A stretch of 28,317 nucleotides of DNA from Fidelibacterota bacterium (lineage in GTDB: Bacteria > Fidelibacterota > Marinisomatia > Marinisomatales > UBA2128): the NCBI GenBank assembly GCA_046861645.1, contig JBHHUM010000025.1:1-28317 (forward strand), written 5' to 3'. The notes beneath the pieces were generated by a model. That model did not search any database, was not told where the DNA came from, and worked only from the letters and a program-made list of their open reading frames with translations. Below, one piece after another: positions 1 to 19,154 of this stretch (within the stretch, counting starts at the first letter, position 1; each line of letters begins with the position of its first letter). Position numbers and translations under genes: made by a program.

Positions 1-83
1 CTGGTTTCTGTCACATATTAGGAGCTGTCACTTAACTGACACAAAACTCATAAATCGAGTAAGCCAATAGCAAACATTATAAA

Positions 84-719
84 ATGGAAAAGAGAGATAT
101 TCACCATAGGAAAAGGGATTTCCAAACCACTACACGTAATCTTAAGAACAATGATATAATTGTACCCAGAAATCGACAACTGATCCTCGACTTCATTAGA
201 GATTGTAGACTGGGAAAGACGGTTAAGAAAAAACAGAAAAAGGTCATTGGTGTAGCTCGATGCACAAAGTATATCCACATACTTGTCAAGATTTCCCTAT
301 GGATTGGAAAACCATTTGACGAAGTCAATGATAAGGATATGGAAGACTTCATCGCGGGATTAGAGAATGACAAGTATCGGTACGAACGCAAGACAAGAAA
401 AGGGGAAACAATAAGCGTGACGAAATATAGTCATGCGACAAAACTAGACTACAAGAAGACTATCAAGAAATTCTACAAATGGTTGTTCGGAAAAAATGAA
501 TATTACCCAGAGCTAGTTAACTGGATTGAAACCTATGAAAGAATAAAGGAAATACCTGCATTGAAAAGAGAGGAAGTTGAGAAGCTTGTGGTTGTTATAA
601 ATATCAGAAATAAAGCAATAATTATGTCAACCACAACTGCCTGTCAAGACTCCGGTACTGAATCGCCTCACTCAGATGCTGAGGGAGAATGCCGTCAACT
701 CCTTCAATATCTGCGATAG
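84..719 (+). pseudogene. Truncated tyrosine recombinase/integrase (N-terminal and core-binding part only; catalytic domain missing)
   Basis: Residues 1-181 resemble archaeal-type integrase N-termini ([63 protein letters not shown] = start of box I). The pattern stops at nt ~626. The last 30 codons are the antisense of the comM 3' end. No R-H-R-H/W-Y catalytic residues. Confidence 0.7.
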
Positions 720-2163
720 TTTGGGACACCTTAAGTATTCGATCATACGCCCGTGCCGACAGTCCCAGTTTTTCCATAGCGGTCTTCAAGAGCTTTCTGC
801 CATTCTCATCAATGCGGCAGTATTTCCTGATGTCCCGAGTGCCCATATGAGCGTTACAGTACTTATTGGAATGGGATTTGAAGCGCCTCAACTGCACTTC
901 CCGAGCCCTTTCCACCCGCTTGCGAACATCATCCGACGGCTCCCCTTTGGGCTTATCCGCTAAGTCAGTGTACGGAACAGCTGGTACTTCTACATGCAGA
1001 TCAATTCTATCGAGTAGAGGACCAGAGATGCGGCTCATGTATTTCTGGATCATTGGGGGCGTACAAGAACATTCGTTGTTAGGGTCAGTAGAGTAACCAC
1101 AAGGACAGGGATTCGTAGCTGCCAGCAACTGAAAATTGGCCGGGTAGGTTACAGAAACTGCCGCACGGGAAATGGTTACTTCTCCATTCTCAAGCGGCTG
1201 CCGCATCACCTCCAGGACGTTCTTCCGGAATTCTGCTAATTCATCCAGGAACAGCACACCGTGATGGGCAAGACTCACTTCTCCCGGCTTGGGGATCGTG
1301 CCGCCGCCGATAAGACCGGCATCGCTAATGGTATGGTGCGGCGCCCGGTACGGCCTGATTGCCACCAGCCCTACATCATTGGAGAGGACACCTGCAACTG
1401 AGTGAATCTTCGTGGTTTCCAGCGCTTCTTCTAAAGTAAGGTGTGGTAGAATGGTGGGCAAACGTTTAGCCAACATGGTCTTACCTGAACCAGGTGGACC
1501 AATCAGGATAGCATTGTGTCCACCCGCGGCAGCCACTTCCAGAGCTCGCTTCACATGTTCCTGACCACGTACATCCTCAAAGTCCACAGAATAATCCAGG
1601 TTTTCCTTGAATAAAGTACCCAGATCAACTTGGGTGGAAACCGTCTCAGTCTCATCATTCAGCATCGCTACCACTTCCTTCAGGGAAGTAAATCCAGCCA
1701 CCTTAACACCATCGGCCACAGCGGCTTCCCGGGCGTTCTGCTCGGGTAGCACGATTCCCTTTACACCCTGATAGGAAGCTGAGATGGCAATCGGCAGGGC
1801 ACCGCGAATCGGACGTAACGACCCATCTAAAGCTAATTCACCTAAGAGCCATAACTTGTCTAGGTAACTGGGCTTTACCTGTCCTAACGCAGCCAGGATA
1901 CCGATAGCAATGGGAAGATCAAAGGCGCTCCCTTCCTTCCGAATATCTGCTGGAGCCAGATTGATAATAGTTTTCTTGTTTGGGAATCTGAACCCGGAAT
2001 TTCTGATGGCAGCGACCACACGTTCTTTACTTTCTTTCACAGCACCTTCCGGAAGACCCACTGTAACAAATTTGGGCATGGGTGAAGGAGTCAGATTGGC
2101 TTCAATCTCTACCCGATAAGCATCGATACCCAGGATAGCGCTGCTTAGTACTCGGGCATGCAT
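622..2163 (-). CDS. comM: ComM/YifB Mg-chelatase-like AAA+ ATPase (competence helicase)
   Basis: N-terminal [15 protein letters not shown] and [20 protein letters not shown], Walker [15 protein letters not shown], Walker [35 protein letters not shown]. Full length at 513 aa. Confidence 0.96.
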
Positions 2164-9683: not shown

Positions 9684-10496
9684 TTACTGATCTAAAAGTT
9701 GGCTTAATTCCTCCACCAGGGATTCTGTTTTCCTCACATTATTAGTAAAAGCGCGGTCGAAATCCTTTTCTGGAAATCCGTTTCCCATCCAATAATAATC
9801 CACCCGACGAAGATCACGGGTTGCCAGTCGAACTATCTTATCCAATTTCTTCCGTTGGACCAGTACCCGGGCGTAAAGCTCCTCAATTTCGTTGAGTTCC
9901 CGACCTAATTGAACCAGTTTCCTCTCCCTATCCTTAACACCAAGAAACTCTGCTACAGTTTTCCTCCTTCCTTCAATTTCACTATCTAACTTGATCATCT
10001 GTGCTGTTATGGTGAAAACATCCTCCTCCATTTCCTGGAGACGAGCTTCAGGAGTATACAGCCGGAAACCGCCTTCTTTTAAATTTTGGAGAAAATCGAA
10101 TTCTGCCTGTTGAACAGCCTCCTGAGTTTTATTCAACTCTTCTTTCTTCTCAAGGTAAGTTTGTTGCTGACCGGGAGAAGGAATTTCCCTGACTCTGGCA
10201 ACCCTTTCCTTTTGACGTTCAAGTGCTATGTTAAATCGATCTAATGCTTGCTTGACTTCTCCTAACAACTCCTCAGCATCCTCATAAAGTTTTAAGCTGG
10301 AGGCAATAATGGTCAGAGACCCTTTTTCCAAAGCCTCTTCGTAAACGCTAATCCTCTTCTTCAACTCCCGGGACCACAGGCGATCGCCTTCTAAATCGGC
10401 CTTCATCTGATCCTTAGTGGTTATCTCATTATTATCAGTGGGAATCCCGCAAGAGTAGATGATACCAGTTAGAACAATAATAAGATATCTAATCAT
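9684..10496 (-). CDS. Coiled-coil lipoprotein, hypothetical
   Basis: Lipobox IIYS-C at residue 16, followed by long E/K/L-rich helices. Confidence 0.78.
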   Translation of the reverse strand: MIRYLIIVLTGIIYSCGIPTDNNEITTKDQMKADLEGDRLWSRELKKRISVYEEALEKGSLTIIASSLKLYEDAEELLGEVKQALDRFNIALERQKERVARVREIPSPGQQQTYLEKKEELNKTQEAVQQAEFDFLQNLKEGGFRLYTPEARLQEMEEDVFTITAQMIKLDSEIEGRRKTVAEFLGVKDRERKLVQLGRELNEIEELYARVLVQRKKLDKIVRLATRDLRRVDYYWMGNGFPEKDFDRAFTNNVRKTESLVEELSQLLDQ

Positions 10497-15375: not shown

Positions 15376-17181
15376 ATGAGCTTAGAAAGAACAGCAATAA
15401 TTATCATAATGGTTTTTTCAGGATTTCTAGTCGCTCAAGAAAAGCTAACCATTAAAGAGGATTCACCCATTTATGCTGAACCTGACAACGAATCCCGGGT
15501 GATTGCCTATGGTATCGCCGGGGACAAGGCTGAGGTGCTAGAATATAAAGATGACTTCTTCCTTATACGCTACAATTCATTTGGTTTTACTTACGAGGGT
15601 TATATACAATCTTCTGCAATTAAAGGGAAAAAACCATCTATTAAATCCCACGATGATGAATTGGATCTTACCAAAGTACCTGAGAAAGCACCTTCTGTTC
15701 TGAAAACCCCGTTATCCTCCTTACAACCAATACCTGAAAAGAGACCGGCTATGCTAATCAGACCTGACCCTGAGGCTCTTCAAAGGAATCGCTTTTTCTT
15801 TAGCGATTGCCTCTGGCTCGTTGGAGCTACGGGAGTAGTCTATGGAGGCTGGGAACTTACCAATAGAGGATACGTGGTATTGGGGCGAGATATCATGGCA
15901 GGTTCTATCCTTACCTGGCTTCTGCGTACCAAACTGGTCAGGAACCGTCGGTCATGGGGATCACTTGAAACTCTGGAGGTAACAGCACAGCCTTATGACG
16001 TTGCCGGTTGGCCTAAGTGGCAATTTACTCCCGGAGAGCAGGGTCAAGTAGTACTTACTATTATCAATCGGGGAGATAAGAGAGTTAAAGGCATCCACCC
16101 TAGAATTCGACTCAAATCGAGCGTATTGCAAAAACAATTCGGTAAACTGAAGGTCAGGAGGGGTAGCACCGAAGGTAGAAGAAGGTATCTGATCGGTGGT
16201 TTTACCCTCGACCCGGGTGAATCAATGACCATCGCAACTACATTTCAAATTCCCTCCACCTATCCATCGACTACCATCGAAATCAAAGGCTCTCTCACTC
16301 GTACCCTGTATGGAACAGCACAGATGGAAGTAGGTATTGATGAGTTGTTACCTCTCATGGCTCAGGCTGAAGAGAAACCTGTCATCGCTCTATTGGATGT
16401 TGAGCGAAATATCCCTCAAACTACCTCCAACCATAATGCTTATGGTATTGTTTTTGGAATCGAACAGTACAAAAACGTCTCTCCCGTTACTTACGCCCGG
16501 AGGGATGCTCATTGGGTTCGAGAGTATTTTGAAAAAACCCTGGGTATTCCTAAGGAAAACATTTATTACCTAACTGATAGCGATGTCAGTAAAGCAGAAC
16601 TCGACAAAGTTTTTTCGCTCGGTGGATGGCTGGATAAGAGAGTACTCGATGGTGTAAGCGATATCTATATCTATTACGCTGGGCATGGAGCTCCAGATAT
16701 CAGTAACCGGACTGCCTATCTTATTCCTTATGATGGTGATCCCAATTACGCTTCCCAAACCGGTTACGAGGTGGACGAATTAACTCGTAATTTGAGTCAA
16801 TTGGGAGCTCGCTCGGTTACAGTTTTCCTTGACGCTTGCTTTACTGGTGCCAACCGGGAAAATGAAATCCTGTTAGCTGGAGCCCGACCAATCTTTATGG
16901 AAGTCAATCCCTCCATGGCAGAAAATGTCACCCTCTTCTCTGCTGCCAGTGGGACAGAGATATCTTCAGCCTGGCCAGAAAAGCAACATGGTCTTTTCAC
17001 TTACTGGTTACTGAAGGGACTTCAGGGAAAAGCTGACACCGATCAGAATAACAATTTAACCGTGCAGGAATTAGGCGATTATATTCGCGAAAACGTCAGT
17101 ATCACAGCTGGAAAATTAGATCGAGAACAGACCCCTGTTTTACAGACCCGAATAACTGATAAAGTGGTAGTAGAATATTGA
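15376..17181 (+). CDS. Caspase-family (peptidase C14) protein with signal peptide, SH3-like domain, membrane hairpin and Ig-like domain
   Basis: Catalytic dyad motifs YYAGHG and FLDACFTG, plus GIEQY, HGLFTYWLLKGLQG and EQTP. N-terminal IYAEPDNESRVI..EGYI SH3-like segment. Confidence 0.9.
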   Translation: MSLERTAIIIIMVFSGFLVAQEKLTIKEDSPIYAEPDNESRVIAYGIAGDKAEVLEYKDDFFLIRYNSFGFTYEGYIQSSAIKGKKPSIKSHDDELDLTKVPEKAPSVLKTPLSSLQPIPEKRPAMLIRPDPEALQRNRFFFSDCLWLVGATGVVYGGWELTNRGYVVLGRDIMAGSILTWLLRTKLVRNRRSWGSLETLEVTAQPYDVAGWPKWQFTPGEQGQVVLTIINRGDKRVKGIHPRIRLKSSVLQKQFGKLKVRRGSTEGRRRYLIGGFTLDPGESMTIATTFQIPSTYPSTTIEIKGSLTRTLYGTAQMEVGIDELLPLMAQAEEKPVIALLDVERNIPQTTSNHNAYGIVFGIEQYKNVSPVTYARRDAHWVREYFEKTLGIPKENIYYLTDSDVSKAELDKVFSLGGWLDKRVLDGVSDIYIYYAGHGAPDISNRTAYLIPYDGDPNYASQTGYEVDELTRNLSQLGARSVTVFLDACFTGANRENEILLAGARPIFMEVNPSMAENVTLFSAASGTEISSAWPEKQHGLFTYWLLKGLQGKADTDQNNNLTVQELGDYIRENVSITAGKLDREQTPVLQTRITDKVVVEY

Positions 17182-18341
17182 TAGCTAAAACTCACTCCAG
17201 AACCCCATCTCTAATTAAGAGCGGGGGCCGCTTTGAACTCATTCTGACACAACAATCATACTATGTACATAAGTTAAATAATATACCTCCCCGTCTTACT
17301 CTTGTTGTAATAACTTTGATTGTCCTCACTGCCTGCGGTTCGAAACCCTCCACTGAACCGCAATTATCAACAGAAGAAGCGAAAGCTAAGATTAAGGAAG
17401 GTTTCACTGAACTGAATACTGAAGTAGGAGTCACTGAAGTCGAAAAGGATCTGTCTGGAGTGGAATCTGCAGCTACTGGTGAATTCAATGTGATGGAAAG
17501 CTTAGTTGAACCTGATGCAGCGGAGATGATCGAATACGAAACCGGGAAACCAGGATGGATTGAAGTTGCAGCTACCCGGATTTTCCCGGAGAGTGTATCC
17601 AATCTCTCTGCCCGACAGGAGCTATTGAACATTCTGCGTAATGAAGCTGTCTCGAAAAAAGTCCCTCGTACAATAGAGGTGTCTTCCCTCCTCACCGACA
17701 TCATGAGTGAAACCGCTGGTCGGGCTCAAGAGCAAACGGCCTGGTCAAGCTTCTTCAAAAGTACGGTAACAGGGATGATTACAAGTGAAAAAATAGTCTC
17801 AGAATCCGATCCAAAATTCCTGCAGGGAAAAAACAGCTTTGAGAAATCTATTACCCTGAAAGCTTACGTGGAACCTGTTAAGGGTAACCGTGATCCAGCA
17901 TTTTCAGTCAAAGCTGAATTACAGGACAACACTCTCTCTACCGGCGATGAATTAAATTTTTATTTGACCCCTTCTCAGGAAAGCTATCTTTACGTTTTTA
18001 ATCTGATGGCAGATCACAGTGTTCTATTAGTTTTTCCAAATGATTACATGCCGGATAATCACCTCAAGGCGGGTGAAACGGTACAGTTTCCTGATCCTAA
18101 AATGCGAGGTTATATCCGTTTTCGAGTGGGAACTTTACCAAGTGAAAAACTAACTACAGAATCGATCTACGTGGTCTGTACCAAAGATCCCGTAACCGTC
18201 GCTGATAAACTTCCCAGGATAGGAACAGGTATGCCGACTTCTGGAGACAGTAAAAGTTTTGTAGAGCTACAACGTTGGCTGACCAACATACCTCTAAACC
18301 GAAGAGTAGAGAAAAATCTAGTCTATTTTGTGGCGGAATGA
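17178..18341 (+). CDS. DUF4384-domain lipoprotein (start uncertain)
   Basis: Lipobox LTA-C. C-terminal GDELNFYL..SYLYVFNL..VLLVFPN..NHLKAGETVQFP matches the DUF4384 pattern. The middle region is LPP20/FlgT-N-like (weaker call). Confidence 0.8.
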   Translation: MIAKTHSRTPSLIKSGGRFELILTQQSYYVHKLNNIPPRLTLVVITLIVLTACGSKPSTEPQLSTEEAKAKIKEGFTELNTEVGVTEVEKDLSGVESAATGEFNVMESLVEPDAAEMIEYETGKPGWIEVAATRIFPESVSNLSARQELLNILRNEAVSKKVPRTIEVSSLLTDIMSETAGRAQEQTAWSSFFKSTVTGMITSEKIVSESDPKFLQGKNSFEKSITLKAYVEPVKGNRDPAFSVKAELQDNTLSTGDELNFYLTPSQESYLYVFNLMADHSVLLVFPNDYMPDNHLKAGETVQFPDPKMRGYIRFRVGTLPSEKLTTESIYVVCTKDPVTVADKLPRIGTGMPTSGDSKSFVELQRWLTNIPLNRRVEKNLVYFVAE

Positions 18342-18411
18342 AGCATGGAGAATTGGAGGAATGCCTGTTTGCCGAACAGGAAGGGATTCTGGAGAAAGGG
18401 AGAAGTCGTTT

Positions 18412-18497
18412 AACCTTGATTAAAAAAAGATTGTAACGATTAGCTTGATTGAAAAATCATGGAAATCAGAATAATCAAGTAAATCAAGTTTCAGACA
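18412..18497. repeat. Periodic imperfect inverted repeat (4x GATT / GAAA loop / 4x AATC)
   Basis: GATT at 18418, 18429, 18438, 18447. GAAA at 18451-54. AATC at 18455, 18464, 18473, 18482. Confidence 0.75.
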
Positions 18498-18611
18498 ATA
18501 GAGAAACAGTCATGAAATATTAACAATGAAGAGGGTTAAAATCTTAATAACTAACTGGATATGGAAGTATCCTATCCGGTTTAAAACCATCAACAAGAAG
18601 GAGCATAGCAC

Positions 18612-19154
18612 ATGAAATATTTCATCATTACATTAACAGTTACTCTCATCTTAGCAGGATGTGGAGGGCCGAAATCCAGTTCAGGTAGTACTGAAGCAGG
18701 ATCGTTTGGAGATGCACCAAAATGGTTCATGAATCCCCCCAAATCTAAGGACAAGATATATGCTGTAGGAGCTGCTAAAAAGCAAAATCCTTCTCTGGCA
18801 TTAAATGCAGCAACCCAACGGGCTCGGGATGAAATAGCCCGCTCTATAACGGTAAAAGTTCAGAATATGATGAAGGATTTTATGCAGGAATCAGGAGTTG
18901 GTGAGAATGCCCAAGCTCTGGAATTTTCCGAATCCGTTTCCAAGCAAGTAGCTAATGTATCCCTATCTGGATCAGTACGAACCAAGACAGCTACCGGAAA
19001 AGATGGTACCATCTATGTCCTGGTGGAATATCCGTTAGACGGGGTACGACAGGCCGCTTTAGACGAAGCCAAGAAACAGGAAGCCCTCTACAACGAGTTC
19101 AAAGCAAATCAGGGATTCAAAGAGTTAGAAGAAGCTATCCGCAATCTGAAGTAG
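18612..19154 (+). CDS. LPP20-family lipoprotein
   Basis: AAGGAG RBS, lipobox LAG-C, P-x-W motif (APKWFMNPP), YAVGAA, A..RARDEIARSI and GTIYVLV. Confidence 0.88.
   Translation: MKYFIITLTVTLILAGCGGPKSSSGSTEAGSFGDAPKWFMNPPKSKDKIYAVGAAKKQNPSLALNAATQRARDEIARSITVKVQNMMKDFMQESGVGENAQALEFSESVSKQVANVSLSGSVRTKTATGKDGTIYVLVEYPLDGVRQAALDEAKKQEALYNEFKANQGFKELEEAIRNLK

Follow-up and report, generated by a model that had tools for sequence, protein, structure and literature searches.

The window analyzed here, that is, the whole stretch of 28,317 nt, is the entire contig C100 of the Fidelibacterota genome G000, a metagenome bin from a hydrothermal-vent sample according to the run listing. We propose that it is probably one edge of a composite island flanked on either side by a copy of the comM 3′ end, and that the open reading frame (ORF) at 84-719 is a truncated passenger, which was likely not cut by its own integration. 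A preliminary description had seen in this ORF the intN end of an element integrated at the comM 3′ end, whose integrase had split itself. The junction of an island stood, as did the duplicated core, the second copy of which lies at C163:10141-10173, but the self-splitting did not, as no intC was found beside this copy or elsewhere in the bin.

The ORF at 84-719 encodes the N-terminal part of a tyrosine recombinase

The ORF at 84-719 (forward strand, 211 aa) is made of two parts. Positions 84-627 (forward strand) encode the N-terminal portion of a solo tyrosine recombinase (181 codons and one further base), and positions 628-719 (forward strand) carry a read-through tail of 30 residues, which has no homology to the recombinase family and is comM antisense. 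Residues 1-181 aligned full-length with 79 relatives of 348-459 aa, out of 298 candidates, with 67% identity for the best one, and all 79 carry the PF00589 catalytic domain. The fragment thus represents residues 1-181 of a family of ~400 residues. In the alignment, it departs from the family at RNKAIIM, where the relatives go on with FLFDSGAR, so that homology stops 8 residues short of the first catalytic Arg, that of DSGAR. The catalytic residues R192, H277, R280, and Y313 (P0001 numbering) are kept in the relatives, and none of them is present in the window ORF. Consequently, the recombinase encoded by 84-627 is predicted to be inactive. The fragment matched Phage_int_SAM_4 in Pfam (E 5.6e-4) and XerA_Arch in NCBIfam (E 7e-6), both under cut-off, and its G+C content was 0.36 in 84-627 as against 0.51 in comM.

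These observations bore out several points of the preliminary description: the integrase pattern does run up to RNKAIIM, its ATG (624-626) overlaps the comM TAA (622-624), the remainder of the ORF is antisense to a whole comM, and box I does run a few residues on to the catalytic Arg, which the relatives have 8 residues past the cut.

comM is intact and takes its stop codon from the integrase

The comM gene (622-2163, reverse strand) encodes an intact YifB-family Mg-chelatase-like AAA ATPase of 513 aa, which scored 638.8 bits against NCBIfam TIGR00368 (cut-off, 362.4). Comparison with congeners placed the exact join at 627/628. Indeed, in congeners the last sense codon of comM is followed by the stop, whereas the comM of the window has lost its own stop and reads one extra codon (Thr513) and a TAA, both borrowed from the integrase antisense strand (622-627, reverse strand). 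Judging from codon use in the family, the integrase and comM would have been joined with little or no microhomology.

That the junction is an assembly or library chimera, an alternative raised at the outset, is scarcely credible. The fragment does lie close to a contig end, and every read came from one sample. Yet the assembly was made with k=55 (109/206 contig-end overlaps were exactly 55 nt), which is longer than the 33-bp repeat found at the junction; the assembly therefore spans the repeat and a de Bruijn chimera is not expected. Moreover, contigs in which the core is followed by the integrase antisense strand were recovered in all four separately assembled runs. When the same runs were aligned to C163:1-12000, each of the four showed a loose end before 10129 matching the host comM and another after 10173 matching the integrase antisense strand, and the complementary junction is itself present on C163. 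We therefore rejected the chimera. These four runs stem from one sample of one study, probably the source sample, and their Logan contigs break at the core; they thus add no independent sample.

A second comM 3′ end lies at the far end of the island

The 33-bp core (628-660, reverse strand) corresponds to the last 11 native sense codons of comM. It has an exact second copy at C163:10141-10173, and these are the only two copies in the whole genome. The C163 copy still has the native stop and is followed by strictosidine-synthase-like, MORN, and MscS genes, the very genes that directly follow comM in the congeners G001, G002, and G003. After the C163 copy, 37/40 nt matched G003, as compared with 8/40 after the window core. 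Since the second copy leads into the genes adjoining comM in these congeners, this indicated that an island sits at the comM 3′ end. Comparison of the comM 3′ flanks supported the same view: all three congeners show the empty site, that is, comM without the island.

Upstream of the core copy on C163, a diverged comM piece of ~20-30 codons marks the far end of the island. The comM of the window is of the host type as far as the core, 45/54 nt upstream of it matching G003, while the diverged codons before the C163 copy matched the window at 33/54 nt only. The wider duplication between window and C163 covers 87 nt at 78% identity, of which 33 bp are exact. In the integrase frame, the diverged C163 piece reads one codon past the core and then stops.

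The assembled island amounts to ~10.7 kb, in which remnants are the only recombinase sequences, and its middle is outside the bin; C100 and C163 would be the two ends of one island, the middle of which is unassembled. On C163:1-10110, its accessory genes comprise a cluster for type II secretion and pilins, the gene of a TPR-HTH regulator, a lipoprotein-like gene, and an S8 peptidase gene that is frameshifted and ends in a FlgD-type tail. The same stretch also holds a stub of only 7 codons from a second member of the integrase family, together with two tandem upstream sites (see below). No match to C163:1-5300 was found in the DNA of the three congeners. FlgD-type C-terminal coding tails near-identical to that of the peptidase (L006:9510-9827; 69-83%) occur on contigs C24, C60, C68, C90, C116, C136, C152, C179, and C181 as well, a recurrence that suggests a shuffled family of secreted proteins in G000. 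Two further features were noticed outside the island ends: a tyrosine recombinase gene with one in-frame TAG at C163:30218-30823, 20 kb from the comM copy, and, at 15376-19154 of the window, a cluster of caspase-like, DUF4384-like, and LPP20-like lipoprotein genes, labelled by eye.

Positions 1-55 of the window overlap exactly with the interior of C163. This is a branch point of the assembly graph, the true left neighbour of the window being outside the bin; the left end of C163 has no 55-nt partner in the bin either. A heterogeneous population, in which the window would join the C163 cargo directly in one genotype while another carries a larger pilin/TPR version, seems to us quite improbable. 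It would make sense of the branch at an exact 55-nt overlap, and loose ends matching the window do leave C163 at 5565 (among the rows listed, in two runs); the resulting 5.1-kb islet would comprise the integrase fragment, the site, the lipoprotein, and the peptidase. However, contig depth in run X1, a weak measure, was not higher over the cargo (17) than over the TPR gene (18.3), and run X4 contains a third site variant, which departs from C163 at 5631. The like depth over TPR and cargo, together with this third variant, hints that the window may continue into other, unbinned DNA. In any case, heterogeneity alters the size of the island, not the verdict on the splitting of the integrase.

The other end of the island does not carry the back half of the integrase

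An SSV-type split must place intC beside the second att copy, as the mechanism is set out in the accessible part of PMC7253208. The search for an intC behind a copied core, which had been advised, yielded the copy at C163:10141-10173 and nothing of intC: reading its surroundings in three frames gave no recombinase sequence, and searching the G000 bin with a full-length relative retrieved only the window fragment and a XerD-like gene, with no C-terminal half. As the other end of the island lacks the matching back half, the split reading is unsupported. The deletion remnant, which had been listed as an alternative, came close to our best reading, that is, a truncated passenger cut by an illegitimate join or a deletion.

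A more elaborate version of the split would be a suicidal (SSV-type) integration at the comM stop, nested in an older island, with intC lying in the unassembled middle. We hold it to be very unlikely. The cut site is a plausible one, as it precedes every catalytic residue and lies no more than one base from the stop; the middle of the island is outside the assembly; and six short database proteins begin at the very Met at which the window is cut. On the other side, the outer junction is without intC, and the family sequence past KAIIM (FLFDSGAR) is unlike the core. The DSG common to the comM antisense strand and the integrase was considered as the crossover point and discarded, because it is 12 nt out of register. 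Furthermore, the gene is whole in large chromosomal contigs, one of them of 4.46 Mb, and its predicted att lies upstream and not within it. P0001 matched PF00589 and PF13495, with no match to PF16795, the domain of the SSV-type family (E<=0.01). Finally, the arrangement did not recur: a degenerate junction pattern retrieved only the window's own two loci among 121 loci and nothing in JGI metagenomes, and comM was found in 0/125 family loci (1.2 Mb, some duplicates, flanks of 1.5-10 kb), the one weak match being a sigma-54 activator.

Of the 22 short C-half proteins, 6 have the Met of the cut as their first residue, which counts against the passenger reading. In the family consensus, no other in-frame Met lies between about residue 89 and this one, and two of the six are 91-95% identical to full-length genes. 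Other family fragments break at residues 81, about 192, about 207, 288, and 303. Two further leads were dropped: a KIIM-like antisense reading after the comM copy of G020, which is host downstream sequence shared with G005, and a 16-nt match across the junction on C116, which lies inside a sensor kinase gene and was treated as chance.

The window shares with the suicidal integrases of SSV1, pTN3, and pT26-2, as described in the accessible parts of PMC7253208 and PMC8371274, a catalysis-less N-terminal piece abutting a duplicated target at an island end. It differs from them in having no intC at the other end and an att that is not encoded in the gene, in its target, comM in place of a tRNA, and in the protein family. 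Among the entries listed for the open literature, we found nothing relevant on split integrases, Marinimicrobia comM islands, or att sites of DPANN integrases.

Extra comM 3′ ends recur across the phylum

The last 51 residues of comM were matched in 238 of 401 genomes of the phylum, with >=2 matches in 22/238 (up to about 9%) and up to five in G271. Twelve multi-match genomes besides G000 were examined. One was accounted for by a contig overlap, and in three the comM pieces were large or interrupted, so that not every one of the 22 has a true islet. In seven, comM and a copy on the same contig enclosed a small islet of about 0.15-8 kb; G271 is counted in both of the latter groups. Ten aligned pairs of comM 3′ ends spanned 79-257 nt at 64-90% identity, with variable ends. 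Among 11 proteins scanned from small islets (GIY-YIG, ankyrin, HicAB, FIST, hydrolase, and one IS1595 fragment), none was a site-specific recombinase.

Within the genus, the 33-bp core is the best-conserved part of the comM end, 31-32/33 nt being identical in congeners. Considered as a DNA-level att motif, the comM end was not an outlier among 8-codon windows in comM genes across the order. Long and variable duplications around a core without special DNA constraint thus fit target duplication, or homology, better than a fixed att.

We therefore favor the following scheme for a truncated passenger. The island would have come in through homology to the conserved 3′ end of comM, as an insertion with a long, variable target duplication, or through homology-facilitated illegitimate recombination followed by ordinary homologous transfer. 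Such a homology-driven entry requires no site-specific recombinase. The passenger integrase would have been cut by an illegitimate join or a deletion, and the need to keep comM whole would account for the position of its break, at the comM stop.

Some observations count against this scheme. Selection explains only in part the coincidence by which the break falls less than two bases from the comM stop, and the unassembled middle could hold a real mobilising recombinase or intC. Also, of the five genomes of the phylum in which a family member is full-length, three contain additional copies of the comM 3′ end; these copies are on other contigs, and two of the three genomes belong to one family rich in such copies. 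One may imagine, although we regard it as unlikely, that a site-specific element, whose own recombinase would lie in the unassembled middle, used the 33-bp core as its integration site, and that a later deletion of at least ~0.7 kb removed the C-terminal half of the passenger integrase up to the comM stop. The exact 33-bp direct repeat at both island ends would suit such an element, the middle is outside the assembly, and recombinase elements are known to target comM (PMC10293859, accessible part). Yet these 33 bp are merely the most conserved part of the gene end (31-32/33 in congeners), synonymous conservation shows no excess across comM genes, repeat lengths vary, and small complete islets exist without a recombinase. 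Capture by homology remains the reading that we prefer.

Similar arrangements were noticed elsewhere. In G000, a 40-bp gene-end duplication (95%) at a peptidase gene (C179:5079-5118 and 9809-9848) has the same pattern as at comM, and a 37-bp exact repeat with 65% upstream similarity (C34:25962 and 32610, ~6.6 kb apart) surrounds a two-component system block, possibly another such islet. In G005 and G020, which belong to a different family within the order, a gene homologous to that of the TPR-HTH regulator on C163 (49-51%) adjoins a decayed comM copy (L045:5131-7386 and L046:14018-16276), which also retains a piece of the Walker B region. In G271, comM is interrupted near codon 281-290 by about 2 kb (L252:3123-6706), and in G159, a single contig, comM is found only as pieces 1.5 Mb apart (L249-L250).

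A 76-bp palindrome lies upstream of the parent genes

A conserved upstream motif was present in 32/85 testable family loci. In 30 of 32 aligned rows, it formed a gapless palindrome of 76 bp, placed 44-61 nt ahead of the start codon; the other two (L072 and L178) were dropped as chance. We predict that this palindrome is the att-type site of the family. The window itself begins inside such a site: positions 1-30 (forward strand) are its right arm (model columns 51-80), identical to C163:5623-5594 (60.3 bits, model R1).

A covariance model, with 150 site candidates scored per genome, found the site in 19/24 chosen genomes, almost always once and beside the integrase. An integron-like cassette array was thus set aside, nearly all of the 19/24 matching genomes having one site, and G000 and G403 two. 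A known RNA was likewise set aside, with no Rfam match near the gathering score. Covariation over the whole structure exceeded that of shuffles, and that of the inner stem alone did not (52/500); G.T occurred 39 times and A.C 11 times. Since a DNA palindrome also covaries and the inner stem does no better than shuffles, a folded single strand is not established. A promoter-like motif, whose pattern was written after viewing the sequences, occurred 55-71 nt upstream in 21/30 loci and in 2% of shuffles. We take it to resemble the archaeal BRE-TATA promoter.

Palindrome-bearing loci (L051-L089 and L123-L186) lie on contigs of several bacterial phyla, including the 4.46-Mb one, and have a centre resembling a tRNA 3′ end. 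On C163 (L006:5519-5760), the 7-codon stub of the second family integrase is accompanied by two tandem palindromes 82 nt apart, and one X3 contig repeats the stub-palindrome unit once more. In L054 (107-186), the palindrome centre is inverted relative to the integrase gene. L079 (6058-11209) has three tandem integrases, two of which are preceded by only the right half-site joined to other sequence, and L065 (at 1716) likewise has the right half only. These lone right half-sites suggest that crossover takes place at the palindrome centre.

The parent family is shared by DPANN archaea and bacteria

Family loci comprised 39 in genomes and the best 80 of 245 in metagenomes, a choice biased to whole genes. 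In viral contigs, the only match was a weak one at 23%, and a viral home was not retained. The nearest structures were 5HXY and 4A8E. In a quick unrooted tree, the window fell in a clade of 9 rows (98%), among them rows from Fidelibacterota, Cloacimonadota, Armatimonadota, and Planctomycetota. Rows from archaea were scattered over the tree, which gives no indication of the direction of transfer between archaea and bacteria.

The family resembles type II (pNOB8/SNJ2-like) archaeal integrases and XerA in that several relatives have the whole gene beside a tRNA 3′ end. In contrast to these, it has a C-terminal coiled-coil-like tail, its XerA-like profile match reaches 83 bits against a cut-off of 220 bits, and many bacterial members carry the unsplit palindrome in place of the tRNA. 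A tRNA or tRNA-like end lies directly upstream of the gene in L071, L078, L088, L147, L166, and L178 (three labelled DPANN archaea and three unlabelled metagenome loci), most loci being without a nearby tRNA. In these six, the tRNA(-like) 3′ end replaces the left half of the palindrome, and its last bases resemble the palindrome centre. From this arrangement, we infer that the family would have the type II layout, with att outside the gene (types as in the accessible part of PMC8371274).

In a Woesearchaeota contig (L088:165-851), the first 81 integrase residues are fused in frame to serine-resolvase-like sequence (label by eye). Nine loci (L057, L058, L060, L061, L066, L068, L076, L077, and L086) share motifs about 50-280 nt after the integrase stop, namely two short GC hairpins with TTCG loops followed by two conserved blocks. 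By their position, these may mark the right end of an integrase module; in the Zixibacteria-rich clade, where the conserved motifs lie about 150-280 nt downstream, no flanking repeat was found as an element end around the family genes.

A tentative and rather doubtful proposal is that these genes form a hitherto undescribed family of solo tyrosine recombinases, for which tRNA 3′ ends are the targets in DPANN archaea and which have spread as passengers to several bacterial phyla with an unsplit 76-bp attP palindrome, built around an archaeal tRNA end, and an archaeal promoter-like motif; here, the family would have been captured and destroyed twice in an island at the comM 3′ end, a recombinase-free capture site widespread in the phylum. 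It is possible that the family is already listed in the integrase tables of PMC8371274 and PMC8138268.

DISCUSSION

The island at comM has counterparts among known systems, as these are described in the accessible parts of the papers cited. Long variable target duplications without mobility genes have been reported (PMC2853133, Furuta et al. 2010, citing Nobusato 2000), with accessory DNA lying between direct repeats of >30 bp and of variable length, often at gene ends. Both a >30-bp direct repeat and an empty site in relatives are present at the comM island, and an insert without a mobility gene is the case for the seven small same-contig islets in relatives. However, that process was described for restriction-modification genes in inserts under 20 kb, whereas here the island carries genes for secreted proteins and pilins along with remnants of recombinases, and its far copy of the comM end belongs to a diverged allele. 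In T6SS/Rhs orphan arrays, 3′ gene ends are displaced by homology-facilitated illegitimate recombination (PMC5361080). There too, homology is anchored in a conserved gene end, downstream of which orphan 3′ ends accumulate, but the anchor here is the end of a housekeeping gene, which is functionally unchanged, with no swap of toxin domains.

Tsy and Tn6022 also use comM as a site, and Tsy does so with a tyrosine recombinase (PMC10293859). Their insertion point is close to the Walker B region, so that comM is left in partial pieces, in contrast to the window, where comM is whole (513 aa) and the site is the stop codon. The genes reported for the assembled island ends include no TnsF-type operon; a TniQ search of the genome gave no match, with the controls silent as well.

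In the accessible part of PMC8371274, suicidal integrases are reported from archaea only. A suicidal integrase in a bacterium and at a protein-coding gene, if true, would extend this system, and such an extension is unsupported here. The island is most likely of a known kind, and the integrase a truncated passenger. What stands is a well-resolved gene capture at the comM 3′ end with comM intact, in contrast to the comM-disrupting elements of Acinetobacter and Zoogloea. In addition, a recombinase family common to DPANN archaea and bacteria, with a conserved upstream palindrome, provides a testable lead.
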